The notes below the pieces were generated by a model that saw only the letters and a list, made by a program, of their open reading frames with translations, was not told the origin of the DNA and did no database searches. Positions 1 through 14,053 of a stretch of 14,053 nt of DNA are shown in pieces. The DNA comes from Flammeovirgaceae bacterium. GTDB lineage: Bacteria; Bacteroidota; Bacteroidia; Cytophagales; Cyclobacteriaceae. Position numbers and translations under genes: made by a program. The first letter of the stretch is position 1. Each line of letters starts with the position of its first letter. Location of the stretch: NCBI GenBank assembly GCA_021298355.1, contig JAJTEH010000045.1, forward strand, positions 1-14,053, given 5' to 3'.

Positions 1-34
1 TCGGAACAGTATTTTTATTGAAAGGAGAAGCGAT

Positions 35-877
35 ATGCAAAACGAAAACGAACAAACGTTAAAGAGAGCCATGGCTGGCGACATCAATGCTTTTCAAGAA
101 TTATTTGCCGTGTTTCAACCCCAACTAAAATCGTACTTATACAGATTGGTTACCGATAGAAACGATGCAGAGGATTTAGCACACGATACGTTTATTCGAG
201 CCTTCGATAAACTATCCGGCTTTAAAGGAAATTCATCTTTTAAAACGTGGGTGTTTCAAATTGCTACTAACCTGGCGTTAGATCATCAACGAAAATTTAA
301 GCGGTGGTCTGTAGACACTAAACAAATTGCAAAAGAATTGGTGTTGAATAATAAAACCGTTCGCGATACACTTTGGCAAGCGGGGCAATCTTCTCCGGAA
401 GGAACTTTTGATATTACCGACCACATCGACCATTGCTTTACCTGTATGGGCAAAACCTTGGCAATAGAAAAACAAGTTGTGTTGATATTAAAAGACATGT
501 ACGATTTTTCTATAAAAGAAATTGCCATCATCATCGATAAATCGCAAGATGTATGTAAACACCTGTTGCAAGATGCACGAAACACGATGGTAACTATTTT
601 CGATCATCGGTGTGCGCTCATCAACAAAAATGGCATTTGCAATCAGTGTTCAGAGTTAAATGGCATCTTCAACCCGAAACAAAATCAGCAAGAAGTAATG
701 AACCAACTCGATTTGGTGAAAGGTTCTAAAAAGTACAACCGCGAAGAATTATTTGAGTTGCGTACTAAACTGATTAAAGCGGTAGATCCTGTGCGTGGTA
801 AAGGAGCAGATTTGCAAGACTTACTGATGAAATGCGACCGCATGGGCATGGGTGAGCTGCCCATACCCCTCAATTAA
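35..877 (+). CDS. ECF-type (sigma-70 family) RNA polymerase sigma factor with a long sigma2-sigma4 linker and a ~90-aa C-terminal extension
   Basis: 280-aa ORF. The N-terminus has typical sigma region 2 (…AFQELFAVFQPQLKSYLYRLV…DAEDLAHDTFIRAF…FKTWVFQIATNLALDHQRK). Region 4 HTH is present (LAIEKQVVLILKDMYDFSIKEIAIIIDKSQDVCKHLLQDARNTM). Extra Cys/His-rich segments lie between and after these regions. AAGGAG at 22-27 sits 7 nt before the ATG. Confidence 0.85.
   Translation: MQNENEQTLKRAMAGDINAFQELFAVFQPQLKSYLYRLVTDRNDAEDLAHDTFIRAFDKLSGFKGNSSFKTWVFQIATNLALDHQRKFKRWSVDTKQIAKELVLNNKTVRDTLWQAGQSSPEGTFDITDHIDHCFTCMGKTLAIEKQVVLILKDMYDFSIKEIAIIIDKSQDVCKHLLQDARNTMVTIFDHRCALINKNGICNQCSELNGIFNPKQNQQEVMNQLDLVKGSKKYNREELFELRTKLIKAVDPVRGKGADLQDLLMKCDRMGMGELPIPLN
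422..445 (+). other. H-x3-C-x2-C motif (HIDHCFTC; H130, H133, C134, C137) inside the sigma2-sigma4 linker
   Basis: Direct translation of cac atc gac cat tgc ttt acc tgt. The spacing is identical to the ZAS (zinc anti-sigma) signature. The presence of the motif is certain; metal or redox function is only inferred. Confidence 0.55.
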
Positions 878-938
878 ACTAAAGCGGATACTACGTGTTT
901 TAATAAAAAGATGCAGTTTGGTGCTAACTGCTAAAAGC

Positions 939-1670
939 ATGAGGTGTATGAGTAAGGTAATCTTATTATGGTTAGTAGCAACATGCATAACCACTCAGGC
1001 ATTCGGTATGGGCGATTCAACCCGAAAGAGTTCGTGGTGGTTTGTTTACAAATACGGTTCTGCACGCGGTAATTTATCGCAGTATAAAAATTGGGCAACA
1101 GCGGAAGGATTAAATAACATTTCATCCTTTAGCAACAGCAGAATGATTAGTATTGATATTATACACAACAGAAATAAAATGGTGTATGGTTTAAATACCG
1201 ATTTTGAATTACGATCGTTCGGAACATCAGAGCCTTATTTCTTTTCTTTTACCTTTAGAAGTGGCTATACTTTTTTTGATAATAATCACGTTCAGGTAAA
1301 GGCATTGGGCGGGGTAGGTTTGGGCTATGTGTTTATCAGATTTGAAAACGGTGTGCCAACTTCCTTACAAGATATTGCAACTAACTATACCGATCCGTTT
1401 GCAAGAGCTGCATTGTTTGTGTCGAGGTTTGAAGTATTGACTTCTTATCGCTTAGCAAAACTAAATCGACAGAATAGAAACTTTGGAATAGAAATCAATA
1501 CGATGTTGAATGCAGGCGTACAACCTGTTCTTTCCCATGGCGGTTGGAATTTCGGAGAGAATGAACCGGATATTGATGGCTCCAGGTTTGTTGGTCAGCG
1601 AGTAGGCATTCCTAAATTTTATAAAGCAAACGCATTTATAAACATTGGCCTCGCCATTGTTTTTGATTAA
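939..1670 (+). CDS. Hypothetical secreted protein, outer-membrane beta-barrel-like
   Basis: The ORF track gives 852..1670, but the first 29 codons overlap the sigma gene. An ATG at 939 (or 948) yields MRCMSKVILLWLVATCITTQAFG, a signal-peptide-like N-terminus. The rest is rich in alternating hydrophobic/polar strands and aromatics and ends …FINIGLAIVFD. I recognise no family. Confidence 0.55.
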   Translation: MRCMSKVILLWLVATCITTQAFGMGDSTRKSSWWFVYKYGSARGNLSQYKNWATAEGLNNISSFSNSRMISIDIIHNRNKMVYGLNTDFELRSFGTSEPYFFSFTFRSGYTFFDNNHVQVKALGGVGLGYVFIRFENGVPTSLQDIATNYTDPFARAALFVSRFEVLTSYRLAKLNRQNRNFGIEINTMLNAGVQPVLSHGGWNFGENEPDIDGSRFVGQRVGIPKFYKANAFINIGLAIVFD

Positions 1671-1730
1671 CAACAGAAATCGTAAGGCTGATAATTATAA
1701 TTGTGAAATTAACCCTAATTATAGGATGCA

Positions 1731-4094
1731 TTACGCATTCAACTCGTAAATGTGTTTCAATTGTTTTAATTCTTTTGTGGTTAATGTAAACAGATTCTCA
1801 TTAACGCATAATTGTTTTAAATTTTTTAATGCAAAAATCCATTTAGGTAACCTAGTAATTTTATTTTTCGAAATATCTAACACTTGTAAAGTAGTTAATT
1901 TACCTAGTGAGTGAGGTAGAGCAGTTAAACGATTATCGTGTACACATAGGTATTTTAGTTTTTTTAAATTGCCTATCGAAGTTGGTATTTCTGTTACTCT
2001 ATTTCCATCAATATCTAAATGCGTAAGGTTTTTCAATTTTCCAATTTCTTTAGGAAGTTTGGTAAGTTGTTGGTGGTTTTCAAAATCTATAGAGTTGTAA
2101 ATTTCTAATCGCTTAAGTGTTTGGCATAAACCAATTTCGGGTGGTAAAAACTTTACCGATAGTTTTAACTCTTGTAGGTTAGGCAGTGCGGCAATTTTAA
2201 TACATGCATCGTGCCAGTTTGAAAATGTATTTCCAAGTAGGGTAAGCTTTTTTAAGTTTCGTAATGCACTAAAATTATCTGGTAGCTTTGGTATGTTGCA
2301 ATCGGTAATGCTTAGCTCAGTAAGGGTATTCAATTGCCCAAAAGTTTCAGGCAGAATTAAATCCGAAGCTTCAATACGTAAGATTCTTAGTTTTTTTAGT
2401 GCTGAAAATTCAGTTGGTAAAATTATTTTGCCTTTTGTGGCCAAACGTAATAGTGTTAAATTCTTCATACCATAAATAGTAGAGGGAATTTTATATTCTT
2501 TTTTGTGCAATAACTCTAGTATTAAATTTTGGAGGTTTTTTAGTTGGCCAATTTCAACCGGAATTTGTTTTGTAGTTTGCACATACAACTCACTTACTTT
2601 TGGGCAATGTTTTATTGTATTGCATATATCCGTAAAGTTAATTGATGCAGTATAATCTGTTTTCAGAGTTTCTAATTTATGCAAATACTGTAATGATGAT
2701 GGTAGTTTTTTAATCGATGTTCTTTTTAAAGAAAGATGTTTTAGGTTTTTTAGTTTTCCTAGATCGTTTGGTAAGGTGGTTAATGGGTTATCGTCTACTA
2801 CTAATGTTTCGAGTTGGGTAAGTTGGCCAATCCACGCGGGTAGTGCTGTAAGGCCGGTATCGTTCAGGTATAATTCTTTTAATTGCGTTAGTTTGCTAAG
2901 GTTTTTGTGCAGTGTTAGTTTATTTTTACCATACGCGCGCAATAGGGCTAGGGAAGTAATGTATTTAAGAGAATTTATCTGCGGTGGTATTTTTTTAGCA
3001 TGAAACCGTAAGGTTTTTAGTTTGGGTAGTTTGCCCAGCACAGGTAGGGTGCGCTCAAGATTAAGTGCAGAACAATAGGCAATAGATAAATTTTGTAATT
3101 GAGTAAGTTTTGAAAAAGATACAGGTAAATGTGTAAGAGATGTGTTCCAATACAACGATAACTTTTTAAGTTTTTGCAGTTTACCTATAGTAGATGGTAG
3201 GGTGATTATGTTTTGATCAGAGAGTTCAAGTATTTCTAAATTTTTTAAGTTCGCTATTGAGTTAGGTAATATTTTAAGGTTACCCCCATTAAATTTAAAA
3301 ACAGTGAGTTTTTGTAGCAAGCCAATAGAATCTGGTAAAAAAGATAGAGAATAATTTCTGGAAAGATTCAGTTCCTTTACGTTAACGCAATAACCTAAAG
3401 CGTGTATGTTCGTTTTATTTTGCCAATCCTGTTGTTCGTCTTCCAGATTTAGCGCTGTAATATTTTCGTACATACCCTCTGTAAACAATGTTTTAGAAGA
3501 AGGTAGGAGCTGATCATCCAACATTTTTTCTACCCATTCTAAAAAAGAAAAAGTTTTAAAAGATGTACCTGATGCTTTATAATAAGGATGGTACATATCG
3601 GCTACATGCCAAATGCGACCACGTTCGGTGCCATTTAAAACGAGTGCCGTAAAACTGGATCCCCAACCTTCATAATTTAAAAACAAGCAACCCGAAATAG
3701 TTGAGGAGCCACTTTCCTGCATGATAGCATGTACATCATTTGCCGGATAAGAATTATAAATGGATTCTTTAATTATCCGATTACCTGTTTTAGTATCAAA
3801 CGGAAAAGATTTTGCCAGCTCTAATTCTACATCATCTAAATAATGAAAGCGCGTTGTTTCACGCAATGGGCGAATATGCCGATAGTTGTTTTCACAATTT
3901 CCGTTTCCCAAAAAACGCAAAAACATTTTGTATTCGCTCGGAAGCGTAATGCCATGTTTGTGCTCAAATTTTTTAATCTCACTATTAGATACTGTATCGT
4001 TTAACGTGTAAGGTTCAACACCATTTTCTTTGCGTAGCAAATTCAGCGCTGTAATTTTCTTTTCAATTCTTGAAATGTTTTCTCGTAAGCCCAT
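1731..4094 (-). CDS. SUKH (SMI1/KNR4)-domain protein fused to a long leucine-rich-repeat array; no signal peptide
   Basis: The 787-aa uninterrupted ORF is the longest in the window. The N-terminal ~200 aa show SMI1/KNR4-like blocks (GITLPSEYKMFLRFLGNG; GCLFLNYEGWGSSFTALVLNGTERGRIWHV; FKTFSFLEWVEKML). Residues ~238-768 are LRRs of the LxxLxxLxLxxNxLxxLPxxIGxL type. Confidence 0.88.
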   Translation of the reverse strand: MGLRENISRIEKKITALNLLRKENGVEPYTLNDTVSNSEIKKFEHKHGITLPSEYKMFLRFLGNGNCENNYRHIRPLRETTRFHYLDDVELELAKSFPFDTKTGNRIIKESIYNSYPANDVHAIMQESGSSTISGCLFLNYEGWGSSFTALVLNGTERGRIWHVADMYHPYYKASGTSFKTFSFLEWVEKMLDDQLLPSSKTLFTEGMYENITALNLEDEQQDWQNKTNIHALGYCVNVKELNLSRNYSLSFLPDSIGLLQKLTVFKFNGGNLKILPNSIANLKNLEILELSDQNIITLPSTIGKLQKLKKLSLYWNTSLTHLPVSFSKLTQLQNLSIAYCSALNLERTLPVLGKLPKLKTLRFHAKKIPPQINSLKYITSLALLRAYGKNKLTLHKNLSKLTQLKELYLNDTGLTALPAWIGQLTQLETLVVDDNPLTTLPNDLGKLKNLKHLSLKRTSIKKLPSSLQYLHKLETLKTDYTASINFTDICNTIKHCPKVSELYVQTTKQIPVEIGQLKNLQNLILELLHKKEYKIPSTIYGMKNLTLLRLATKGKIILPTEFSALKKLRILRIEASDLILPETFGQLNTLTELSITDCNIPKLPDNFSALRNLKKLTLLGNTFSNWHDACIKIAALPNLQELKLSVKFLPPEIGLCQTLKRLEIYNSIDFENHQQLTKLPKEIGKLKNLTHLDIDGNRVTEIPTSIGNLKKLKYLCVHDNRLTALPHSLGKLTTLQVLDISKNKITRLPKWIFALKNLKQLCVNENLFTLTTKELKQLKHIYELNA
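1791..3383 (-). repeat. About 23 tandem ~23-codon (~69-nt) LRR coding units, in two blocks split by a non-repeat insert (aa ~476-510)
   Basis: The protein repeats …LPDSIGLLQKLTVFKFNGGNLKILPNSIANLKNLEILELSDQNIITLPSTIGKLQKLKKLSL… throughout. At the DNA level only short strings recur, e.g. aggttttttagtt near 2533 and near 2743. This is a degenerate coding periodicity, not identical DNA repeats. Confidence 0.8.
3516..3989 (-). other. SUKH / SMI1-KNR4-like domain (aa ~36-193 of the LRR protein)
   Basis: By-eye match to the family hallmarks: an N-terminal helix ending in LPxxYxxFLxxxNG, a central hydrophobic strand block with a G/W-rich turn, and a C-terminal sFxeWlexml helix. Not verified by profile search. 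Confidence 0.65.
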
Positions 4095-4312
4095 AATACC
4101 TAAGTTTAATTAGAAGCAGGATTAGTTTTTACAGAAGCTAAAAGAGAGGGGTAAGGTACACTTTGTTAATTAGTACAATTAATTTTAAAAATTCTAATTA
4201 TCTAGCATACAGCCTTCGGGCTAAGAGGTAGCCAGCTTGCAAGACGTGAAATGTAAATGCTGAAATTTTATAAACAGATTTTGTAATGTGCTTTTTAGCA
4301 GATAACTGAAAG

Positions 4313-4735
4313 TCAATCTGTCATCCTCACACCCAAAGAAGTAAACGCTCTGCCGTGAATAATTTGGTTGAGTTCTTTTTGGGTTTTCATGATCTCGTCC
4401 AGCGAGAGCTTTAATTCGGTGTGGTAAATTTTATAGATCAATACCCACTCATCTTTGGCCATAAACCCATCTGCGTTGGCAATTACACACATCCACGCTA
4501 TGCATCGTATTTGCCACTTTAATTCAAGCTTTTTAATTTCAGTTACTACTTGTTTTAGCGTGGTGGAGTGGTCTGTTATCGATTGTAAGTTTTCTAACTG
4601 TTGATTAAACTCAGCTTCATTAATATTTTCAGCCTCCATCATTTTTCTGCCCAGTATCAACTCGCGCTCGTTAATTTTCCCATCAGCTAACATTAATAGA
4701 TAATACAGATTAACCAGAGTTGATTTGTAGTTCAT
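4313..4735 (-). CDS. TerB-like (tellurite-resistance TerB / DjlA N-terminal-like) small cytoplasmic protein
   Basis: 140-aa ORF with two copies of the TerB-type motif hydrophobic-x-A-D-G-x4-(D/E)E: LLMLADGKINEREL and VIANADGFMAKDEW. All-helical character and no TM segment. Confidence 0.6.
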   Translation of the reverse strand: MNYKSTLVNLYYLLMLADGKINERELILGRKMMEAENINEAEFNQQLENLQSITDHSTTLKQVVTEIKKLELKWQIRCIAWMCVIANADGFMAKDEWVLIYKIYHTELKLSLDEIMKTQKELNQIIHGRAFTSLGVRMTD

Positions 4736-4916
4736 AGACAGATGTAATAATCAATCGAAAATTACAAAAAAAATGAACTATTCATTCTTAAAAAGCCGAT
4801 AAATATGTTTTTAGAATCTTTTTCAGCAAAAACTAAATGTACCAAAAGAGAAAAAATACAAGATTAATCTATCGGGTAACTTGGTTTTACTTTTAAACCA
4901 AAAGCAAATACAAAGC

Positions 4917-6701
4917 TTATTCTATTTCTTCTGTTACCGATTGTTTTTCGAAAAGTTCGCGATAGTGTCCGTTTTTTTCCAACAGCGAATCGTGCGTGCC
5001 GCTTTCTACTATTTCGCCATCTACTAAAACCAATATTTTATTTGCCAGCTTAGCCGATGATACCCTATGCGAAATAATGATTGTGGTTCGGCCTTGCATG
5101 ATTCGTTTTAAGTTATTTAAAATATTGTTTTCTGTTTTGGTATCAACAGCACTTAAGGCATCATCCAACATTAATATTTTTGGCTCGCGCACAATGGCAC
5201 GGGCAATGGAAACCCTTTGTTTTTGTCCGCCCGATAAGGTAATGCCTCGCTCGCCCACACGGGTTTCAAAACTTTGCGGAAAAGAAACAATGTTTTCGTA
5301 TACATCGGCATCTTTGGCGGCTTGCCAAACTTTTTGTTCGCCAGGGTTGTGCATACCAAAGCGTATGTTGTTGTAGATGCTGTCGCTAAACAGAAAAACA
5401 TCTTGTGGTACATAGCCGATTTGCGAACGCAAGTTTTGCAAATGATAATCTTGTATGGGTACGTTATCGATCAAAATTTTTCCTTCGCGTACATCGTACA
5501 TGCGGCTAATTAAATTGGCTACTGTACTTTTTCCGCTTCCTGTGGTGCCAATAATGGCTAACGATTCGCCTGGATTAACTACAAAAGAAATATTTTTTAA
5601 CGCGTTTATGCCGGTATCAGGGTAAGTGAAATACACCTGCTTGAATTCGATTTTTCCTTCTATCGTTTTTTCGCTGTTTTTTTCTGATACCAGAGTACTG
5701 GATGTTTTTAAAAACTCATTGATTCTTTTTTGCGATGCTTCTGCCCGTTGCACAAGAGAGCTTGTCCATCCTAACGATGTAACAGGCCATGTTAATAAGT
5801 TTACATAAATAATAAACTCAGCAATGTTACCAAATGTAAGCGTACCCTGTAAAACTTCAGTACTGCCTGCGTAAATGGTAAGTAAGGTACTTGCGCCTAT
5901 AAGCCCCATAATAAGTGGGTAAAAAAGCGATTGTACTTTGGTTAACTTCAATGATTCTTTTCTGTATTGGTCGCTGGCTTCAGAAAAGTTTTGCATCGAT
6001 TCGTTTTCGCGGTTAAACGATTTTATTACACGAATGCCACTAAAGGCTTCTTGTACAAATGTAGATAAGCCCGATTGGTGTTTTTGTATGGCTTCGCTTC
6101 GTCTTTCAATTTTATTGTTAACAAAGAAAATACTTATCGATAACAACGGTAGCGGGCTTAACGCATACCATGTTAACGAAGGGCTGATGCTAAACATAAT
6201 CGGAATCAACATCACAAAAAGTGTAACGAGTTGTAGGCCATACATAATGGCCGGGCCTAAATACATGCGAACGCGCCCAACATCTTCGCTAATGCGATTC
6301 ATTAAATCGCCTGTGTTGTTTCTTCGGTAGAAACTTAAAGGCAACGTTTGGTAATGATCGTAGATTTCGTTTTTCAGATCATACTCTACCAGGCGCGACA
6401 TAACAATGATGGTTTGCCTGACAAAATACAAGAACACTCCACGTAAAAAAGCCATTAACACAATCAAGCCGGCATACAGAAGAATACCACTGGCAAAAAC
6501 AGAAAAGAATTTTTCTTGTGCAGAAAGAGAATTCAACGCTTGATACAACAAAACATTATCCACTACTAAATCAAGCGAGCTGCGTACCAACTGAGCCGGA
6601 ATGATCTGGAAAAGGTTAGAGATGATCACAAACACCATTCCCAGCACCAAATGCCATTTGTATTTATACAGGTATTTATTGAGGTATTTAAGTTCTTTCA
6701 T
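4917..6701 (-). CDS. ABC exporter, fused permease + ATPase (MsbA/MdlB-type half transporter)
   Basis: 594 aa. The N-terminal ~300 aa carry ~6 hydrophobic helices. The ATPase motifs are Walker A GTTGSGKST, Q-loop, ABC signature LSGGQKQR, Walker B ILMLDDALSAVD and the H-loop (IIISHR). Confidence 0.95.
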   Translation of the reverse strand: MKELKYLNKYLYKYKWHLVLGMVFVIISNLFQIIPAQLVRSSLDLVVDNVLLYQALNSLSAQEKFFSVFASGILLYAGLIVLMAFLRGVFLYFVRQTIIVMSRLVEYDLKNEIYDHYQTLPLSFYRRNNTGDLMNRISEDVGRVRMYLGPAIMYGLQLVTLFVMLIPIMFSISPSLTWYALSPLPLLSISIFFVNNKIERRSEAIQKHQSGLSTFVQEAFSGIRVIKSFNRENESMQNFSEASDQYRKESLKLTKVQSLFYPLIMGLIGASTLLTIYAGSTEVLQGTLTFGNIAEFIIYVNLLTWPVTSLGWTSSLVQRAEASQKRINEFLKTSSTLVSEKNSEKTIEGKIEFKQVYFTYPDTGINALKNISFVVNPGESLAIIGTTGSGKSTVANLISRMYDVREGKILIDNVPIQDYHLQNLRSQIGYVPQDVFLFSDSIYNNIRFGMHNPGEQKVWQAAKDADVYENIVSFPQSFETRVGERGITLSGGQKQRVSIARAIVREPKILMLDDALSAVDTKTENNILNNLKRIMQGRTTIIISHRVSSAKLANKILVLVDGEIVESGTHDSLLEKNGHYRELFEKQSVTEEIE

Positions 6702-6774
6702 GTAAGAAAATTCGGGACACCCCGATTAGAACGAAATATTGTTTTTAAAGTTCGCGCAAACGTTTGAAATGCTC

Positions 6775-6782
6775 TAACTTTG
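6775..6782 (+). promoter_or_regulatory. Candidate Bacteroidota -7 promoter box (TAACTTTG = TAnnTTTG) for the dehydrogenase gene
   Basis: Exact match to the TAnnTTTG consensus, 59 nt upstream of ATG 6841. I found no well-spaced -33 TTTG partner, so this is weak. Confidence 0.35.
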
Positions 6783-6840
6783 CAGTGTATTCGAGTTTAT
6801 CGAGTGCACAAACTTAAGTAAAAACAAACGCAAAATTTCC

Positions 6841-7938
6841 ATGCAGGTAAAAGAACTTGAACGAGTTGAAACGGGAATCTTCGGATCACTCTATCAGATG
6901 GGCCATGAACAAGTAGTTTTTTGTCATGACGAAGCTACCGGCCTTAAAGCCATCATCGGCATTCACAATACGGTGTTAGGCCCCGCGTTGGGCGGCACCC
7001 GCATGTGGCATTATACAAACGAACAAGAAGCCATTACGGATGTTTTGCGTTTATCGCGTGGGATGACTTTTAAAGCAGCCATTAGTGGTTTAAACTTAGG
7101 TGGAGGTAAAGCTGTGATTATTGGCGATGCCAGAAAATTAAAATCAGAAGCCTTCATGAGACGCTTCGGTAAATTTGTAAACAGCCTTAATGGAAAATAC
7201 ATTACTGCCGAAGATGTAAACATGAAAACACAAGACATGGAATACATTTCTATGGAAACCAAACATGTTACCGGCTTACCCGAAAGCATGGGCGGTAGTG
7301 GCGATCCATCTCCTGTAACAGCATACGGGGTTTATTTAGGTATGAAATCCACAGCTAAGAAAGTGTTTGGATCTGATTCATTGGTTGGTAAAAAAGTTGC
7401 TGTGCAAGGTGTAGGCCAGGTGGGCATGCATTTGGTTGAACATTTAGTGAAGGAGGGAGCGAAAGTAACCATCAACGATATTTCAGAAGAAAAAGTAAAA
7501 ATGTTGGTAGAGAAGTTTGGTGTAGCAACAGTTGGTGCAGAAGAAATTTTTGATTTGGATATGGACATTTACGCGCCATGTGCATTAGGTGCAACCTTAA
7601 ACGACAATACCATTCCGAGATTAAAATGTGCGATTGTAGCAGGTGCAGCCAATAACCAATTGAAAGACGAAGTAAAACACGGCTACATGTTACGCGATAA
7701 AAGCATTACTTACGCACCAGATTTTCTTATAAATGCCGGAGGTTTAATTAATGTATATAACGAGTTTTTAGGCAATTACAACCGTAAACGCGCGTTAGAA
7801 CAAGCTGAGAAAATTTATCAAACCAATTTATCGATTTTAAATTTGGCCGATGATGAAAAAATATCGAGCCAGGAAGCAGCCATACAATTGGCAGAAAAAA
7901 GAATTTTAGAAGTAGGAAGAGTAAGAATACCTCGCTAA
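6841..7938 (+). CDS. Glu/Leu/Phe/Val dehydrogenase family, leucine-dehydrogenase-like
   Basis: 365 aa. Contains GLKAIIGIHNTVLGPALGGTRMWHY and the catalytic-Lys block GLNLGGGKAVIIGD. A Rossmann motif VAVQGVGQVGMHL is present, and the length and domain order are typical of Leu/Val dehydrogenases. Confidence 0.92.
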   Translation: MQVKELERVETGIFGSLYQMGHEQVVFCHDEATGLKAIIGIHNTVLGPALGGTRMWHYTNEQEAITDVLRLSRGMTFKAAISGLNLGGGKAVIIGDARKLKSEAFMRRFGKFVNSLNGKYITAEDVNMKTQDMEYISMETKHVTGLPESMGGSGDPSPVTAYGVYLGMKSTAKKVFGSDSLVGKKVAVQGVGQVGMHLVEHLVKEGAKVTINDISEEKVKMLVEKFGVATVGAEEIFDLDMDIYAPCALGATLNDNTIPRLKCAIVAGAANNQLKDEVKHGYMLRDKSITYAPDFLINAGGLINVYNEFLGNYNRKRALEQAEKIYQTNLSILNLADDEKISSQEAAIQLAEKRILEVGRVRIPR

Positions 7939-7960
7939 ACCTTCTTTTTAAACTATCGTT

Positions 7961-8003
7961 AACGTTATTTCGGAATAAACCCCGGAATAACGTTTCTTTT
8001 TTT
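7961..8003 (+). terminator. Rho-independent terminator of the dehydrogenase gene
   Basis: aacgttatttcgg (7961-7973) pairs with ccggaataacgtt (7982-7994). This gives a 13-bp stem with one G-U pair and a loop aataaacc, followed by tcttttttt. Confidence 0.78.
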
Positions 8004-8010
8004 AATTTTG
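8003..8010 (+). promoter_or_regulatory. Candidate -7 promoter box TAATTTTG (TAnnTTTG) for nusB
   Basis: Exact consensus match 25 nt upstream of ATG 8035, immediately after the upstream terminator. Confidence 0.45.
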
Positions 8011-8034
8011 CACTATACAAGTCGTTCTTAACAC

Positions 8035-9174
8035 ATGCTTAATCGTCATAGCCTCAGAGTAAAAACCATGCAAAGCCTATTTGCCTTGCACCAATGCAAA
8101 GAAGCCAACCATGGTCTTTGCCATACCATTATCTCTCAACGATTTTCTCCAGACCTGAACTCGATGGAAGTTCAGAACAAAGAATTACTCAAAGAACAAA
8201 AACAAGTAGCCGTAAAATTTTTCGATGAATCTTTCGCAGCAGGACTCGGAAAAATTACTCACGCAGATGCTAAAATAGAAAAAGTAGTAAACGAATCGTT
8301 AGACTACTACGCCAAACAAAGTAAGAAAGACACCGAACACATGCGTAAAAATCTCGTGCAAAATGCCGAGCAGATTTACGAATACTATATTCTTGTTTTA
8401 AGCTTAGGCAGTGCCATTGCCGATGCAGCAGCAGCCGACAAAAAGTTATCGCATACCAGTTTTCTAAATAACGCCTGGGTAAAAGGCTTACAAAACAGCG
8501 AAGCACTAAAAAAAGATTCGCTTAAACTAAACCGACATTGGAACGACAAAGCAGACCGCGTACGCGTTTGGTTTAAAGATGTAATCCGCCAAGACGATGT
8601 GTACCTCGAATCACTCGATAGAAAATCTCCAACTTTAGAAGATCAGAAAAAACTGATTATTCATATTTTTAAAAAATTAGTTTTAGGACAAACCATCATC
8701 AACGATTTCTTCGAAGAAGAAGTATTGCATTGGGCAGAAGATAAAGACATCGTAAAAGGAATGGTGGAGAAGACATTGAAGAACTTTGATCCTTCTAAGC
8801 AAGACCAACTCGGTTTAATGACACTTTCTGTGGATTGGGAAGACGATAAAAACTTTATCGTTAAGCTATACGATTACGCAGCCGATTTACCTGCTAATTT
8901 CAAACAATTGATTGCTGACAATACCCGCAATTGGGAAGTAGAACGTTTGCCGTTAACCGATCGCGTAATTTTAGAAATGGCTATTGCCGAACTTATTTGT
9001 TTTCCGGGTATTCCGGTTAAAGTAACCATTAACGAATACATCGAATTAGCAAAAGGCTACAGCACACCCAAGAGTCGTCAGTTTATCAATGGTATTTTAG
9101 ATGTAATCGCCAAAGCCTTGCAAGACACAGGCGCGGTTAAAAAATCGGGAAGAGGATTGATTGATAACAAATAG
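8035..9174 (+). CDS. nusB: Transcription antitermination factor NusB, long form
   Basis: The N-terminus MLNRHSLRVKTMQSLFAL resembles NusB helix 1. The C-terminal ~80 aa are classic NusB (NWEVERLPLTDRVILEMAIAEL…PVKVTINEYIELAKGYSTPKSRQFINGILDVI). About 220 extra residues lie in between. Confidence 0.85.
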   Translation: MLNRHSLRVKTMQSLFALHQCKEANHGLCHTIISQRFSPDLNSMEVQNKELLKEQKQVAVKFFDESFAAGLGKITHADAKIEKVVNESLDYYAKQSKKDTEHMRKNLVQNAEQIYEYYILVLSLGSAIADAAAADKKLSHTSFLNNAWVKGLQNSEALKKDSLKLNRHWNDKADRVRVWFKDVIRQDDVYLESLDRKSPTLEDQKKLIIHIFKKLVLGQTIINDFFEEEVLHWAEDKDIVKGMVEKTLKNFDPSKQDQLGLMTLSVDWEDDKNFIVKLYDYAADLPANFKQLIADNTRNWEVERLPLTDRVILEMAIAELICFPGIPVKVTINEYIELAKGYSTPKSRQFINGILDVIAKALQDTGAVKKSGRGLIDNK

Positions 9175-9189
9175 TAAAGATTTTTTTAG

Positions 9190-9217
9190 TCAGCCTGAGG
9201 TTTCAATCTCAGGCTGA
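9190..9217. terminator. Bidirectional hairpin terminator between convergent nusB and the exonuclease gene
   Basis: tcagcctgag (9190-9199) and ctcaggctga (9208-9217) form a perfect 10-bp stem with an 8-nt loop. It is flanked by ttttttt (9181-9187) and ttt (9218-9220). Confidence 0.7.
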
Positions 9218-9233
9218 TTTAAATTGAAACTAC

Positions 9234-10607
9234 TTAACTGAGCTCAATTATTTCCTCCGCTTTTTTATCAGATAAATAAATATTCACCAAATTTTGGATA
9301 GTAGGTGTTTCTGCTCCTCGTTGGATGTAAGGATAGGTATCCAGTAAATTTTTAACAGCAAAATCTTCCGGTAAAAATCCATGCCCTACATATACGCCTG
9401 CGTTAACTACAACAACACTTTTTTCGCCCATGTTTCTTCCTTTACCAACAATAGCAAAAGCTTGCTGAGGAGGTTTTAACTCTTTTAGCATTTTTTGTAT
9501 ACGCTTATTGTATTTGGCAGGCGATTCTATTTCCATACACGCGCCTTTGCATTCGCCCGTTTGATGATGAAAACACAAACCCTTTGTTTGTTGCAAACCA
9601 CAAAGCTTAGGGCATAAAGAAAAAGCATTTACTTTCTCCCAAAGCAAATTCCATACATCGCCTTTGGTACTCAGTTTTACCAAAGGCCTTGATCCTTTTA
9701 ACACAATGTTTACAGAAAAACGGATGTAACCGTTTCTATCTTCGTACATGTAAATGCCCCATTCTTCTGTTTTATATTTTTGAGCCTGATTATACTTAGG
9801 CCACAGCCTTCTTATCTCTTGCGATTCTACAATAAGCGCGAGTAAATCGTTACCGGTTAATTGATAGTGGATGTGATGAATTTCATTTCTGATATTGAGT
9901 TTACTCCACTCACGCGCTTCACCGGAAAAATGCCCGGCAATTCTTTTTTTAATATTAGTTGCTTTGCCTACATAAATCACTTGCTTGCGCGCATTCAAAA
10001 AATAATAAACACCAGGTTTAGCCGGCAGTCTATCGAACTCACTTTTTTCTAAGTTCGGTGGCAAAATGGTTTCGCCACTGTTGCGTTTTAATGCTTTTAC
10101 AATAACACCTTGCTGATCGCGCCTTAACAGCGTGTCGAAAACTTTTACAGTTGCCAGCGCATCACCTTCGGCCCGATGCCGGTTATTAATCGCTATGCCA
10201 AGGCTTTCGGCTAAGTTGCCTAAACTATACGAACGCAAACCCGGAATAATTTTTCGGCTTAGGCGAACGGTACATAACTTTTTAGTCTGCCAACGAATGC
10301 CAACTTGTTCTAACTCTTTTTTTAAAAAAGAATAATCGAAATGCGCGTTGTGCGCGACAAAAATCTTGTCTTTTAACCGATTAAAAATTTCATCAGCTAC
10401 ATCAGCAAATCGAGGAGCCGTGGCTACCATCTCGTTGGTAATACCCGTTAAACCCGTGATATAAGATGGTATATTTCGCTCCGGATTAATCAACGTTCTA
10501 TACACCTCTCCTGCTTGTATGCCATCGTGCCAGGCAATGGCAATTTCTGTAATGCGATGGTTCTCCGCATAGCCACCGGTAGTTTCTATATCTACTATCG
10601 CATACAT
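9234..10607 (-). CDS. DnaQ-like DEDDh 3'-5' exonuclease fused to a GIY-YIG (UvrC N-terminal / Cho-like) nuclease
   Basis: 457 aa. Exonuclease motifs are Exo I AIVDIETTG, Exo II FVAHNAHFDYSFL and Exo III HRAEGDA. The GIY-YIG block is KPGVYYFLNARKQVIYVGKATNIKKRIAGHF…ESQEIRRLWPKYN. A Cys cluster follows: C332, C336, C345, C353, C357. No UvrC C-terminal EndoV/HhH half is present. Confidence 0.88.
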   Translation of the reverse strand: MYAIVDIETTGGYAENHRITEIAIAWHDGIQAGEVYRTLINPERNIPSYITGLTGITNEMVATAPRFADVADEIFNRLKDKIFVAHNAHFDYSFLKKELEQVGIRWQTKKLCTVRLSRKIIPGLRSYSLGNLAESLGIAINNRHRAEGDALATVKVFDTLLRRDQQGVIVKALKRNSGETILPPNLEKSEFDRLPAKPGVYYFLNARKQVIYVGKATNIKKRIAGHFSGEAREWSKLNIRNEIHHIHYQLTGNDLLALIVESQEIRRLWPKYNQAQKYKTEEWGIYMYEDRNGYIRFSVNIVLKGSRPLVKLSTKGDVWNLLWEKVNAFSLCPKLCGLQQTKGLCFHHQTGECKGACMEIESPAKYNKRIQKMLKELKPPQQAFAIVGKGRNMGEKSVVVVNAGVYVGHGFLPEDFAVKNLLDTYPYIQRGAETPTIQNLVNIYLSDKKAEEIIELS

Positions 10608-10673
10608 GTTGCTAATTTATAGCAAAACAAACGAAGCAATTGCACTTCCCGACAAAAAGTTGAACTTTACCGG

Positions 10674-11033
10674 ATGAATTCAATTATCCGATTTTTATTA
10701 ACCGGTTTAGCAGTTGTGTTAACGGCTTATCTACTGCCGGGTGTGCATGTTACAGGGTATGTAGATGCGCTTTGGGTAGCCCTGGTATTAACGTTGGTTA
10801 ATGTGTTGGTAAAACCTGTGCTGATTATTTTTACCATTCCTATCACCTTTATGACATTGGGCTTATTCTTACTCGTAATAAATGCCTTGATGATTTTGTT
10901 AACAGATTACTTTGTTGATGGGTTTGAAGTAGATGGATTTTGGTATGCCTTATTTTCTAGTCTGATATTATCTTTATTCACCAGCATGTTATTTGATATT
11001 ACCGGGGTGAATAAAAAGAAAGACCAACGGTAA
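10674..11033 (+). CDS. Small 4-TM membrane protein of the 'phage holin family 4 / DUF360 (YvlD-like)' type
   Basis: 119 aa. The sequence IRFLLTGLAVVLTAYLLPGVHV…ALVLTLVNVLVKPVLIIFTIPITFMTLGLFLLVINALMILLTDYF is the pattern I associate with PF04020-type proteins. Confidence 0.72.
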   Translation: MNSIIRFLLTGLAVVLTAYLLPGVHVTGYVDALWVALVLTLVNVLVKPVLIIFTIPITFMTLGLFLLVINALMILLTDYFVDGFEVDGFWYALFSSLILSLFTSMLFDITGVNKKKDQR

Positions 11034-11073
11034 TTTTATTCTTTGGTATCCTCATTTAATATTGTGCATTTGA

Positions 11074-11110
11074 TAAAAAAAAGTCCACGATGTACATCGT
11101 GGACTTTTTT
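11074..11110. terminator. Bidirectional rho-independent terminator between convergent genes
   Basis: The palindrome gtccacgatgtacatcgtggac spans 11083-11104, with arms of up to 11 nt. It is preceded by an A-run (11074-11082) and followed by tttttt (11105-11110). Confidence 0.82.
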
Positions 11111-11137
11111 ACATAATGATTAATTAATTAATGGCTT

Positions 11138-11527
11138 TTAATCCTCCTTCTGTTCACAGGGCTCAACAAAGCGAACTTTGTGTTGTTTGGTGCCATCGTA
11201 GTTTACAATGGCCATACACTGTACACCATTAGAATTAAAATTTTCCGGATCAATTTCTACATACGCATTTTCTTTGTTACCAGCATCAGCAGATGCATCA
11301 GTTGGTTTCACTTCGAGGTAAGCAAAAAAAACATTTTGTTCATCGCCAACATTTTCTCCTAAATGATAGAATGCAGGATCTTTAATTTGCAACACGGCTG
11401 TACCGCAAATGCTGCGTAATACGCTTACGTTTACACACGTGCCATTAGATTTGTTTATCACTTCTTGCTGGCATGTAAAGGCAAAGAGGAAAACACTTAA
11501 AAAAAGAACAGATGAGGTGGTTTTCAT
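11138..11527 (-). CDS. Hypothetical small secreted protein / lipoprotein, Cys-containing
   Basis: 129 aa. The N-terminus MKTTSSVLFLSVFLFAFTC is a signal peptide with a lipobox-like FAFTC. There are four further Cys residues. No family recognised. Confidence 0.6.
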   Translation of the reverse strand: MKTTSSVLFLSVFLFAFTCQQEVINKSNGTCVNVSVLRSICGTAVLQIKDPAFYHLGENVGDEQNVFFAYLEVKPTDASADAGNKENAYVEIDPENFNSNGVQCMAIVNYDGTKQHKVRFVEPCEQKED

Positions 11528-11598
11528 ACGAATTAATTTTTCAGTTAGACACAGGCAGTGCGTAATGGGTTGTAACCAGAAAAATTATTTTTAAATAA

Positions 11599-12345
11599 TT
11601 AAGAATTATTCCACTCGTAAATTTTATCTGCGATCTCGCTCAACAAGGCTGGATCTTTTTCTAAAGCATTGCCAATAACAATGCAATCTGCTCCGGCTTC
11701 TAACGCAGTTAATGCCTTATGTGCAGAATTAATACCGCCTCCCACCAATAACGGACATTCAATAGATTTGCGCACGCTGTTTATCATTTTAGCGGATATC
11801 GGACGCTCGGCACCACTGCCGGCATCCAGGTACATCATGCGCAAGCCTAACATTTCTCCGGCCATTGCCGTGCAGGCAGCTAACGAATATTTTTCTTCTG
11901 GTAAAGGAGTAGTGTTGCTCATATAGGCAACAGAAGTAATTTTACCGGAATTTATCAGCATGTAACCCGTTGGGATTACTTCTAACTTTGTATTTTTTAG
12001 GATTGGTGCTGCAATAACATGTTGTCCGATTAACAATTCAGGATTTCTACCTGAGATTAACGACAAAAATAAAATACCATCGGCACTAGGTTCTATTTGC
12101 ATGGTATTGCCCGGAAACAACACCACAGGAATGTTTACACTTTGCTTAATCTGTTTTACAACTTCGTGCAAATTAGTGGTGGTAATTAAACTTCCACCTA
12201 CAAAAAAATAATCGACTAAATTTTCGCTGGCTAAGTTTATTAAATGTTGCAAACGCAAACCATCTTCAACCTTATCGGGGTCGATAAGTACGGCAACTGA
12301 CTTGTGCCCTTTGGCTTTTTTTTCCTGAAACGACTTATAGATCAT
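11599..12345 (-). CDS. Geranylgeranylglyceryl phosphate synthase family (GGGPS / PcrB-like prenyl-glyceryl-phosphate synthase)
   Basis: 248 aa. Family blocks are VAVLIDPDK, YFFVGGSL, VVLFPGN, ADGILFLSLISGRNPELLIGQ, MMYLDAGSGAERPI and PLLVGGGINS…GADCIVIGNA. These indicate a TIM-barrel G1P prenyltransferase. Confidence 0.9.
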   Translation of the reverse strand: MIYKSFQEKKAKGHKSVAVLIDPDKVEDGLRLQHLINLASENLVDYFFVGGSLITTTNLHEVVKQIKQSVNIPVVLFPGNTMQIEPSADGILFLSLISGRNPELLIGQHVIAAPILKNTKLEVIPTGYMLINSGKITSVAYMSNTTPLPEEKYSLAACTAMAGEMLGLRMMYLDAGSGAERPISAKMINSVRKSIECPLLVGGGINSAHKALTALEAGADCIVIGNALEKDPALLSEIADKIYEWNNS

Positions 12346-12730
12346 CGTTAGGTTTGTTTTCTTTCTTCGCTAAATATTCGCCAACTTTTTCTTTTGCTAT
12401 TGCTAAAAGAAAAACGGCAGCCTGGCTTGCCAACACCGTTCCAATTTTTGTTATGGTTTGACTAATGGCCGATGGCTCTTCTGCTTCTACTTCGTTTTCT
12501 TCGCCTTCACCTTTTGCTTTGCTTATTTTTTTCTTCTTTCCTTTCTTATCCGAAACTAAAGTATAAATTAAATAGGTGGCTGCTAACACTCCCCCTACAA
12601 TCAATGCTGTTTTAATAATTTTTTCTGTGCGCTCCGACACAACTTTTACTTCTCCCTGCAAAGCTTCCTTTTGTTGTGCGGCTTTGCGGAGCAACTGCGT
12701 TTTAGGATCTGTTTCTTCTAATAATTCCAT
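12335..12730 (-). CDS. Hypothetical membrane protein: amphipathic N-terminus, one TM helix, Lys/Glu-rich linker, second hydrophobic helix
   Basis: 131-aa ORF. Its stop overlaps the GGGPS start by 11 nt, and its start lies 1 nt after the upstream gene's stop. Contains ALIVGGVLAATYLIYTLV and the KKGKKKKISKAKGEGEENEVEAEE linker. No family recognised. Confidence 0.6.
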   Translation of the reverse strand: MELLEETDPKTQLLRKAAQQKEALQGEVKVVSERTEKIIKTALIVGGVLAATYLIYTLVSDKKGKKKKISKAKGEGEENEVEAEEPSAISQTITKIGTVLASQAAVFLLAIAKEKVGEYLAKKENKPNDDL

Positions 12731-12731
12731 A

Positions 12732-13118
12732 TCAATCGTTGAGCTTTTCTTTTAACTTTTCTTCGAGGGCTGCACTAACAGGTTGGCGCAAGGCCAACAC
12801 AATTATCAACATTAAAAAATAAAACAAGGCTACTGCGCCAAATCCCATCATATAACCCCAAAATGTAGCTAACCACAAGGCTAATGTTATGCTGATAAAA
12901 ATGATGAACAGACTAAAGGCCATAAGCACAACTAGCATAATAGTTATGCGGGCAATGGCTTTGGCTATTTCTTCCTTCACTTCGAGTTTTACTAACTCGA
13001 GGCGCGTTTCAACGTAATCTGTTAAATTGTTTACCAGATTATCAAGGCGAAGTAATTTTAAAATGGATTCTTTCCACATATTGGCAAGATAGAAAATTTG
13101 TTCCATCTGTTGAAGCAA
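12732..13118 (-). CDS. Small 2-TM membrane protein resembling the 'holin-X / phage holin superfamily III' (PF07332-like) family
   Basis: The architecture is an amphipathic helix (LVNNLTDYVETRLELVKLEVKEEIAKAIARI) followed by two TM helices. The start is uncertain: ATGs at 13118, 13106 and 13079, and I consider MWKESIL… at 13079 plausible. Confidence 0.6.
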   Translation of the reverse strand: MLQQMEQIFYLANMWKESILKLLRLDNLVNNLTDYVETRLELVKLEVKEEIAKAIARITIMLVVLMAFSLFIIFISITLALWLATFWGYMMGFGAVALFYFLMLIIVLALRQPVSAALEEKLKEKLND

Positions 13119-13127
13119 AATAAATGC

Positions 13128-13703
13128 CTAAACGCGCGTAACCCATTTAGCAATTACACGCGGATAGTGCTCGTGTTCTAATTGCAATACTTTTCCCCCT
13201 AAAGTTTCAGGGGTATCGGTTTTATCAACTTCACATTTTACTTGTAAAAGAATTTCTCCATCATCGAAATGTTCATTTACCAGATGGATGGTTAAACCAC
13301 TTTCCTTTTCTGCAGAAGCAATAACTGCTTTGTGAACATGCATTCCATACATTCCTTTACCTCCAAATTTGGGTAAAAGAGATGGATGAATATTGATGAT
13401 TTTCTCAGAATAGGCTTTGATTAAATAATCGGGAACCAATAACAAAAATCCGGCTAACACAATATGCGAAACGCCATGGCTTTGCAAGGTTTGCAATACT
13501 GTTCTGCTAGTATAAAATTCTTCTTTATTAATGAGTATGGATTTAACACCAAACTGGTTTGCTTTTTCTAACACACCGGCATTTTCTTTATTGCATACAA
13601 CTAAGGCCACTTCTATGGCTGCATGATTGGCTAAATAATGCATGATGGCTTCTGCATTACTGCCCGAACCAGATGCGAAAATAGCTATGCGAAATGGCTT
13701 CAT
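13128..13703 (-). CDS. purN: Phosphoribosylglycinamide formyltransferase
   Basis: 191 aa. Contains IAIFASGSGSNAEAI, ENAGVLEKA, IVLAGFLLLVP and IINIHPSLLPKFGGKGMYGMHVH…ESGLTIH…FDDGEIL, classic PurN motifs including the catalytic N/H/D triad context. Confidence 0.93.
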   Translation of the reverse strand: MKPFRIAIFASGSGSNAEAIMHYLANHAAIEVALVVCNKENAGVLEKANQFGVKSILINKEEFYTSRTVLQTLQSHGVSHIVLAGFLLLVPDYLIKAYSEKIINIHPSLLPKFGGKGMYGMHVHKAVIASAEKESGLTIHLVNEHFDDGEILLQVKCEVDKTDTPETLGGKVLQLEHEHYPRVIAKWVTRV

Positions 13704-14053
13704 ACTTGTGCCGGCAAAAATAACATGCTGATGATGCCCAGTAACATAATGATTTTACTGAGGTTGCTCAACCACCTGAAATCTTTAACGGTATCCGCTC
13801 TGTGCAAACGCAAGGCAAACCAAGCCAATGGCAAAAACAAAAACGACATAAAATACACAGATGGAAGAATGGTAAAGTAACTGTCTAAGATCAGCACAAG
13901 AAGCACAAACACAACCAACACACTATATAAAAAATATTTTGTTTTTCTAATGCCCCACAAAATTGGTAAGGTTTTACATCCGAACGTAATGTCGCCTTTT
14001 AAATCTTCCATATCTTTTACAACTTCGCGCACCAACGAAATAAAGAAAGCGAA
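13700..14053 (-). CDS. UbiA-family prenyltransferase, C-terminal part (gene continues beyond the window); DGGGP-synthase-like
   Basis: The frame is open to the window edge; the TTG at 14035 is internal. The translation …FAFFISLVREVVKDMEDLKGD… contains the second Asp-rich UbiA motif in the REIxKDxEDxxGD form typical of (di)geranylgeranylglyceryl-phosphate-type enzymes, followed by 3-4 TM helices. Its stop overlaps the purN start (ATGA). Confidence 0.8.
   Translation of the reverse strand, partial: FAFFISLVREVVKDMEDLKGDITFGCKTLPILWGIRKTKYFLYSVLVVFVLLVLILDSYFTILPSVYFMSFLFLPLAWFALRLHRADTVKDFRWLSNLSKIIMLLGIISMLFLPAQV

Follow-up and report, generated by a model that had tools for sequence, protein, structure and literature searches.

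A rare SUKH–leucine-rich-repeat fusion protein of Cytophagales, a variant of known protein-binding or immunity scaffolds

The stretch of DNA analyzed here, in the following called the window, comprises 14,053 nucleotides of a Flammeovirgaceae bacterium (contig JAJTEH010000045.1, positions 1 to 14,053) and carries a gene for a 787-aa protein in which an N-terminal SUKH-1 (SMI1/KNR4) domain is followed by 24 leucine-rich repeats (LRRs). Our analyses describe SUKH-LRR as a non-catalytic and likely cytoplasmic polypeptide with two modules that, by analogy with their relatives, would both bind proteins. It is an uncharacterized variant of known protein-binding or immunity scaffolds and not a new kind of system. 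A preliminary description of the window had already pointed to this open reading frame (ORF). The ORF is real and starts with ATG; we correct its strand to minus, as translation of 1731..4094 on the plus strand shows stops throughout and gives no ORF. Coordinates of the gene and its parts are collected in Table 1.

The SUKH assignment of the N-terminal 205 residues is solid, because profile scores, predicted structure and structure comparison all lead to it. Pfam family SMI1_KNR4/SUKH-1 (PF09346) matched aa 35-179 with E=1.8e-6 and 29.0 bits versus a gathering cut-off of 25.4, and the matches to SUKH_6 and SUKH_5 were weaker and lay under their own cut-offs. A model of aa 1-212, predicted with AlphaFold2 (AF2) from a 32-sequence alignment of relatives, reached a predicted local distance difference test score (pLDDT) of 94.8 and a predicted template-modeling score (pTM) of 0.90. 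In a Foldseek search of the PDB with this model, ranks 1-20 were SUKH structures in 20/20 cases and included BF1740 (3d5p), YobK (2prv), 2icg, yeast Knr4 and FBXO3. Match probabilities were 0.35-1.00 and target template-modeling (TM) scores went up to 0.59, with modest E-values (5e-3) because the domain has extra helices: compared with the solved SUKH domains of ~130-220 aa, it features an additional helix at its N-terminus (aa 3-23) and a pair of helices inserted at aa 101-128. The N-terminal helix belongs to the SUKH domain and is kept in orthologs and stand-alone relatives. A sequence-profile search of the PDB with the SUKH domain also found 3d5p (E=1.3e-4) and 2prv (2e-3). The domain hence scores above the curated SUKH-1 profile threshold and shows the alpha+beta SUKH fold, in agreement with the family named in the preliminary description.

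C-terminal of the SUKH domain, a full-length AF2 run with 8 sequences predicted one continuous solenoid (aa 205-784, pLDDT ~90) with 24 evenly spaced beta-strands between aa 214 and 763; in this run the SUKH part was not resolved (pLDDT <50), and the orientation of SUKH and LRR modules toward each other could thus not be assessed. Pfam families LRR_14 (5e-61) and LRR_8 (7e-33) covered the repeat region, and a manual register gave 24 LRRs in a solenoid of aa 212-784, with repeat lengths of 20-30 residues and a mode of 23, close to the ~23 repeats counted before. By these matches and the repeat length, the array belongs to the tandem-LRR curved solenoids of the typical/SDS22-like 23-24-residue class. 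It does not belong to the ribonuclease-inhibitor-like LRRs with their 28-29-residue repeats, as the mode is 23 and no Pfam family of this type was matched. With E-values of ~1e-19 to 1e-20, Foldseek placed the LRR region next to SHOC2, plant LRR receptor kinase ectodomains (LRR-RK) and LRR proteins of Leptospira.

Where the preliminary description had seen a Cys-containing non-repeat insert (aa ~476-510), we find an irregular LRR of 26 residues, repeat 12. Its strand (476-478) and helix (487-494) lie within the solenoid at a pLDDT of about 90 or higher, and repeats 6 (aa 333-358) and 18 (aa 614-639) are of the same irregular type. Likewise, the two LRR blocks described before exist as two halves, but they are parts of the single continuous solenoid. 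BLASTP aligned block 1 (aa 213-499) with block 2 (aa 500-787) collinearly over 269 aa at 29% identity and E=4e-30, and the irregular repeats of the two halves coincide in this alignment. Autocorrelation of the repeat array peaked at 23, 46, 142 and 285 aa. Taken together, the half-versus-half alignment and these peaks indicate an ancient tandem duplication of a 12-LRR unit. Recent repeat expansion is ruled out, since no DNA-level repeats were detectable within the gene. Block 2 has a GC content at third codon positions (GC3) of 0.24, below the rest of the gene, and plus-strand GC skew is strong over the LRR region, up to 0.26.

Hydropathy, the conserved N-terminal helix that is embedded in the SUKH domain, and the lack of matches to export tails or enzyme domains all point to a cytoplasmic protein, which we regard as likely. 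Kyte-Doolittle values peaked at 0.61 in the hydrophilic N-terminus (first 60 aa) and at 1.05 over the protein as a whole, and hydropathy of the 787 aa revealed neither a signal peptide nor a transmembrane segment. Pfam and NCBIfam searches found no tail for the type IX secretion system (T9SS), be it Por_Secre_tail or another C-terminal domain (CTD), and Pfam, NCBIfam and PADLOC no NTPase or enzyme domain. A surface or secreted LRR adhesin, either internalin/BspA-like or T9SS cargo, is not what we see, given the hydrophilic helical N-terminus kept in all orthologs and the absence of a CTD match. The cytoplasmic location suggested by the preliminary description thus stands; of the findings that it would have taken as fatal, neither a missing SUKH match nor a secretion signal was seen, and the SUKH match is significant.

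The best NCBIfam matches were confined to the LRR region and went to the LRR effectors of type III secretion systems (T3SS) XopAE (2.7e-61), XopAC and XopL (1e-49 to 1e-61 for the three). They might be indicative of an exported effector, i.e., a eukaryote-like LRR protein delivered by a non-classical route into a protist, alga or bacterium, where LRR and SUKH modules would hijack host proteins. An LRR region of SHOC2/plant-NLR type would suit such a role, as would the occurrence of SUKH domains in eukaryotes and their viruses (PMC3113570) and the existence of phage LRR proteins (phrog_6688; Leptospira phages). However, the scores against these three families (208 vs 600, 185 vs 450 and 168 vs 500) stayed about 3-fold under the cut-offs, and the matches included no effector domain. 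SUKH-LRR has no signal peptide, T9SS CTD or enzymatic effector domain, no secretion-system gene lies nearby, and we know of no T3SS in Cytophagales. We hence consider an exported effector improbable.

From the ortholog searches and the genome and metagenome scans, we conclude that the 787-aa SUKH-LRR family is real and rare and, as judged from sequence conservation, under purifying selection. The window protein is 99% identical to protein P0001 of a Chryseotalea sp. metagenome-assembled genome (MAG; Cytophagales). Six further ortholog clusters, full-length or partial, share 39-46% identity and the same architecture in end-to-end collinearity, and precomputed annotation lists PF09346 on 7/7 orthologs. 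Among 5.8-15 billion proteins, true orthologs amounted to ~8 clusters, all from Cytophagales-like genomes or metagenomes. An exhaustive phmmer search with aa 1-236 against 1.84 billion representatives found 8 proteins at <1e-30 and 427 at <1e-3, the latter mostly proteins of ~200 aa. A word-indexed homolog search with the N-terminal domain alone returned nothing, although exhaustive phmmer found relatives, and with a 32-sequence profile of this domain it gave just 11 matches. Two pattern scans of 185,579 GTDB species representatives detected no relative of the SUKH-LRR family. A scan of Joint Genome Institute (JGI) metagenomes (241 million records) yielded only two loci of the family, L004, which over the searched N-terminal 212 aa has 99% identity with the window protein, and L005, from a close relative of bacterium 336/3. 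SUKH-LRR is absent from 50,697 phage records, which rules out carriage by these phages. The phyletic pattern, as seen in these sequence collections, is that of an accessory gene.

The preliminary description had presented the fusion as an architectural orphan beyond known paradigms. This view did not hold. C-terminal LRRs are present in 17/122 of the best SUKH relatives (coverage of at least 140 aa), and 9 of these 17 lie outside the 787-aa family. At 24-28% identity, the nine proteins (419-556 aa) are collinear with aa ~29-480, a stretch that comprises SUKH and a single 12-LRR block. They come from MAGs as singletons, and their genes have no conserved partners and lie in contexts that are unrelated to each other and mostly of housekeeping type; one of the proteins, MBS2027387.1 (Deltaproteobacteria), is named 'SMI1/KNR4 family protein'. 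Further relatives are fused to HEAT repeats (P0183, P0205 and P0251; by sequence inspection also metagenome loci L006, L015, L026 and L029), to TPR (P0184 and P0264; by sequence inspection P0136) or to LRV (P0151). Others have a double SUKH (P0243; by sequence inspection P0127 and P0128) or a GNAT domain (P0256). With LRR, HEAT, TPR and LRV fusions in one SUKH subfamily, a SUKH head with a solenoid tail appears from these sequences to be a recurrent design, which is already annotated in databases. Moreover, SUKH, LRR and HEAT have each been described as an immunity scaffold, and immunity domains fused to one another are on record (PMC3482391). In a crude neighbor-joining (NJ) tree of SUKH domains, the 787-aa family formed a tight clade, and the other LRR-fused members were interleaved with solo, HEAT-fused and TPR-fused proteins. 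A single origin of all SUKH-LRR fusions is thus not shown, and at this sequence level recurrent fusion is indistinguishable from poor resolution of the crude tree. Overall, the earlier interpretation was right about the fusion and the lack of partners; its claim of a paradigm-breaking orphan is not supported, and we rather see a rare LRR-duplicated member of a recurrent design.

The gene neighborhood of SUKH-LRR gives no functional handle. In the window, the strand of SUKH-LRR carries, upstream of it, an ABC exporter gene and then a TerB-domain gene (140 aa), the latter at a distance of 218 bp, and SUKH-LRR is convergent with an extracytoplasmic function (ECF) sigma factor gene and an unannotatable 272-aa ORF. 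Four independent ortholog neighborhoods (window, L001, L002 and L003) have no partner in common. We reject TerB and the ABC exporter as partners because both are absent from all ortholog loci. The preliminary description had left room for TerB or another conserved partner and had itself counted a lack of conserved partners against its reading; TerB is missing and no conserved partner was found. Its statement that no toxin, secretion or NTPase gene adjoins the window gene is confirmed and extends to the orthologs, none of which has an adjoining toxin, Rhs/CDI (contact-dependent inhibition)/LXG/PAAR, secretion or NTPase gene in any locus. No locus places SUKH-LRR next to a polymorphic toxin or in a polyimmunity cluster, as would be the case for Imm-SUKH genes, and the only, weak hints are Imm50 in L003 and SuFu in L026. 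FG-GAP/TcdB_midN proteins near P0132 were considered as Rhs/Tc toxins and rejected, as they are ~800-aa proteins.

The single loci are diverse. In bacterium 336/3 (L001, 6073-18235), ortholog P0003 lies between Amidase_2 and DUF900 hydrolase genes and genes for a ParB-methylase, the small and large terminase and a Mu-like portal; the Amidase_2 protein weakly matched a PHROGs phage-lysis amidase family. From this position at a prophage edge, SUKH-LRR may be phage-associated cargo in bacterium 336/3. That L005 shows the same context as L001 merely reflects the close relationship of the two genomes: the N-terminus of SUKH-LRR is 81% identical between them and the flanking genes 86-95%. Amidase_2/DUF900 synteny between close relatives with 81-95% aa identity is trivial and we do not read it as a functional link. 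L005 differs from the otherwise syntenic L001 by an insertion between the amidase and DUF900 genes (1706-4924), which encodes a protein of 1072 aa that has a signal peptide and is not matched by Pfam. In L002, the ortholog has cytochrome oxidase genes, MarR and a NERD/UPF0102 gene to one side and a TPR protein gene to the other. The L003 ortholog is flanked by a TonB_C gene and an outer membrane protein (OMP) gene, with the Imm50 gene 2.5 kb off. Synteny of the 272-aa ORF downstream in the window with the L003 OMP or with a 272-aa ORF in L005 was ruled out, since there is no similarity.

The window context could in principle suggest a sensor of a defense or stress system, in which the LRR region would sense an invader molecule and SUKH would couple it to an effector encoded elsewhere, e.g., TerB or the ABC exporter. 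LRRs are the sensors in NLR/STAND systems, many LRR-only homolog matches are ROCO or NB-ARC proteins, and in the window both candidate effectors stand upstream on the same strand. Yet these two genes are missing from every ortholog locus, and a gap of 218 bp precedes the TerB gene. Pfam detected neither an NTPase domain (NB-ARC, NACHT, Roc-COR) nor an effector domain in the protein, and PADLOC models gave zero matches. SUKH-LRR hence does not resemble an NLR/STAND/ROCO sensor or a component of a known anti-phage system, and the sensor of a conflict system envisaged in the preliminary description is very improbable.

What then might SUKH-LRR do? We tentatively favor, well short of considering it probable, a trap of immunity type that stands alone ('orphan') and would bind and sequester, in a stoichiometric manner, protein toxins or other foreign proteins entering the cytoplasm. 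Its SUKH head would offer a conserved site for binding, and the enlarged, more variable C-terminal LRR surface would add extra or broader specificity. Other members of the SUKH-1 family bind via the cleft of the domain. For SUKH-LRR, we infer both the nature of the ligands, toxins or foreign proteins, and their neutralization upon binding. We prefer the trap because both scaffolds are documented as immunity scaffolds, because the gene is rare and GC3-deviant (0.27, the lowest of 12 window genes, with a range of 0.30-0.45 elsewhere), and because its contexts shift, including a prophage edge. Moreover, SuFu is found beside a SUKH-HEAT relative, the concave face of the LRRs is variable over much of the solenoid, and the N-terminus at 81% identity compares with 86-95% for its neighbors in the L001-L005 pair. 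In the SuFu case (L026, 5337-8794), SuFu (353 aa) and SUKH-HEAT (444 aa) are encoded in one same-strand cluster with an unannotated 160-aa protein and a Zn-ribbon protein. Among the contexts that we saw for SUKH-solenoid proteins, this is the only one with the look of a heterogeneous polyimmunity locus. Concave-face conservation was high in repeats 2-5, 8 and 16 (0.66-0.83) and low across most of the remaining solenoid (0.34-0.51 in repeats 9-15, 19, 23 and 24).

Several observations weigh against the trap. The concave-face values were computed from only 7 sequences. No toxin or secretion gene adjoins SUKH-LRR in 7 independent contexts (window, L001, L002, L003, L043/L053, L044 and L046). Unlike fast-evolving immunity genes, the SUKH domain is 40-46% identical among orthologs, with many invariant residues and full collinearity, and in the wider subfamily strong motifs are common across phyla, which would fit a conserved endogenous partner. 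In cyanobacteria (Nostoc/Hassallia, L048-L051), a stand-alone SUKH of the subfamily has a housekeeping setting between SelO and a GNAT acetyltransferase gene. Furthermore, 787 aa is very large for an immunity protein, and the repeats have 23 residues and not 28-29 as in ribonuclease-inhibitor-like LRRs.

Alternatively, SUKH-LRR could be an endogenous scaffold or adaptor, with SUKH binding one conserved cellular partner and the LRR region another so that a complex is assembled or regulated. SHOC2, via its LRR horseshoe, and FBXO3, Knr4 and Syd, via SUKH, act on protein complexes of their own cell. The cytoplasmic SHOC2 is among the structures that the LRR region matches best (TM up to 0.66), and the cross-phylum conservation of SUKH motifs, the housekeeping-type neighborhoods free of toxins, the collinearity of the orthologs and the conserved concave-face residues in the N-terminal repeats are all in agreement with such a role. 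From the GNAT adjacency and the SUKH-GNAT fusion P0256, there are hints of a functional link of the subfamily to acetyltransferases; together with SelO they would point to cellular enzymes. In contrast, SUKH-LRR is extremely rare and patchily distributed for a protein with a housekeeping function, no conserved adjoining gene names a partner, GC3 is deviant, and one ortholog sits at a prophage edge. A scaffold would hence explain the conservation and the housekeeping contexts, not the rarity, and we regard it as possible though doubtful, nearly as likely as the trap.

If the trap were true, bacteria would carry partner-less neutralizers of broad specificity that follow the same LRR logic as eukaryotic innate immunity, and the concept of the orphan immunity gene would be widened. 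We may even speculate, as a rather unlikely generalization, that SUKH-solenoid fusions with LRR, HEAT, TPR or LRV tails form an unrecognized class of stand-alone cytoplasmic 'innate' binders, trapping injected toxins, phage or other foreign proteins without a cognate toxin gene. The 24-LRR version of Cytophagales would then be a member of expanded specificity that arose by LRR-block duplication. What is documented is one SUKH subfamily that is repeatedly fused to solenoid repeats, with the Cytophagales family as its rare version with duplicated LRRs.

Table 1. SUKH-LRR gene, encoded modules and upstream region in the window
Feature	Coordinates	Strand	Basis
Complete coding sequence of the 787-aa SUKH-LRR protein	1731..4094	minus	ORF list and translation; stop codon 1731-1733
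N-terminal SUKH-1 (SMI1/KNR4) domain, aa 1-205	3480..4094	minus	Pfam PF09346, AF2, Foldseek, PDB profile
LRR block 1, aa 212-499, N-cap and repeats 1-12, mostly 23-residue LxxLxLxxNxLxxLPxxIGxLxx units	2598..3461	minus	Register, AF2
Irregular 26-residue LRR, repeat 12, aa 474-499	2598..2675	minus	Register, AF2
LRR block 2, aa 500-787, repeats 13-24 and C-terminal helix, duplicate of block 1	1734..2597	minus	BLASTP, autocorrelation
Upstream intergenic region, 218 bp, between the SUKH-LRR and TerB-domain genes	4095..4312	minus	Sequence

The upstream intergenic region probably contains a promoter of the SUKH-LRR gene's own; promoter consensus scans of this region used a consensus that is uninformative for Bacteroidota promoters. 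Among the other genes of the window, the convergent ECF sigma factor (35-877, plus strand, 280 aa) carries HIDHCFTC, an HxxxCxxC motif, between its regions 2 and 4, and its C-terminal tail, CALINKNGICNQCSELNG, is rich in Cys; it may be metal- or redox-sensing with a built-in regulatory extension. L046, another SUKH-LRR locus, likewise has a convergent ECF sigma gene, probably by chance. The 272-aa ORF (852-1670, plus strand), which overlaps with the sigma gene at the end of the latter, was without a match in searches of Pfam, NCBIfam and PADLOC. If read from an internal Met, its beginning resembles a signal peptide, MSKVILLWLVATCITTQAFG, and the product may be an outer-membrane or secreted protein under control of the ECF sigma factor. 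The TerB-domain protein (4313-4735, minus strand; PF05099, 1.2e-8) is a stand-alone protein encoded downstream of the ABC exporter gene, with no other ter genes nearby. A 457-aa DEDDh exonuclease-GIY-YIG fusion (9234-10607, minus strand) matched the PADLOC candidate model PDC-S48 at 3e-45; in Bacteroidota, it probably serves housekeeping repair and is not a defense gene. Finally, a NusB homolog of 379 aa (8035-9174, plus strand) has its NusB domain at aa 269-360 only, preceded by a ~260-aa N-terminal extension without annotation.

In comparison with known systems, the Xanthomonas effectors XopL, XopAE and XopAC (NF041351, NF041400 and NF041381) share the LRR subtype with the window protein, which in contrast to them has no E3-ligase or Fic domain and no T3SS context. 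Of the solved LRR architectures, the best match (~25% identity) is SHOC2, the eukaryotic cytoplasmic scaffold in the SHOC2-MRAS-PP1C complex. Both proteins have at least 20 repeats of 23-24 residues of LPxxIGxL type and lack a signal peptide; the N-terminus of SHOC2, however, is disordered and contains no SUKH, and homology between the LRRs is supported only at the level of the generic LRR class.

The stand-alone SUKH-1 proteins YobK (2prv), the immunity protein of the YobL toxin in B. subtilis, and BF1740 (3d5p) from Bacteroides fragilis share with aa 1-205 the fold, the motif LPxxYxxFLxxxGNG, a central G...LVxxGxxxGxVW sheet and a C-terminal FxxWxxxxL helix. Such proteins have 130-220 aa and often stand by toxin genes, whereas the window protein has extra helices, a 580-aa LRR region and no toxin neighbor. 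The shorter SUKH-LRR proteins from MAGs (MBS2027387.1, MBN2693468.1) have the same domain order and are collinear across the SUKH-LRR junction, some also with an irregular 26-residue repeat. They differ in having only one block of ~12 LRRs, and their SUKH domains are not one clade with the 787-aa family in the crude NJ tree; they are equally uncharacterized.

In the literature on polymorphic toxin systems, SUKH, LRR and HEAT each serve as scaffold of immunity proteins, and immunity domains also occur in fusions (PMC3482391). Heterogeneous polyimmunity loci have been described as well (PMC3482391, PMC3113570; Zhang et al. 2011 and 2012), and in a Stenotrophomonas poly-immunity cluster an LRR protein, cited as ribonuclease-inhibitor-like, adjoins Knr4/Smi1 proteins (bioRxiv 10.64898/2026.07.13.738213). 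A fusion of SUKH and LRR is not described in PMC3113570, PMC3482391 or this bioRxiv paper. The Imm-SUKH and Imm-LRR literature knows orphan or polyimmunity arrangements, whereas the window gene has neither toxin nor polyimmunity surroundings. Imm-SUKH, Imm-LRR and Imm-HEAT proteins nevertheless show the two scaffolds that are joined in SUKH-LRR serving as non-catalytic, cytoplasmic toxin binders.

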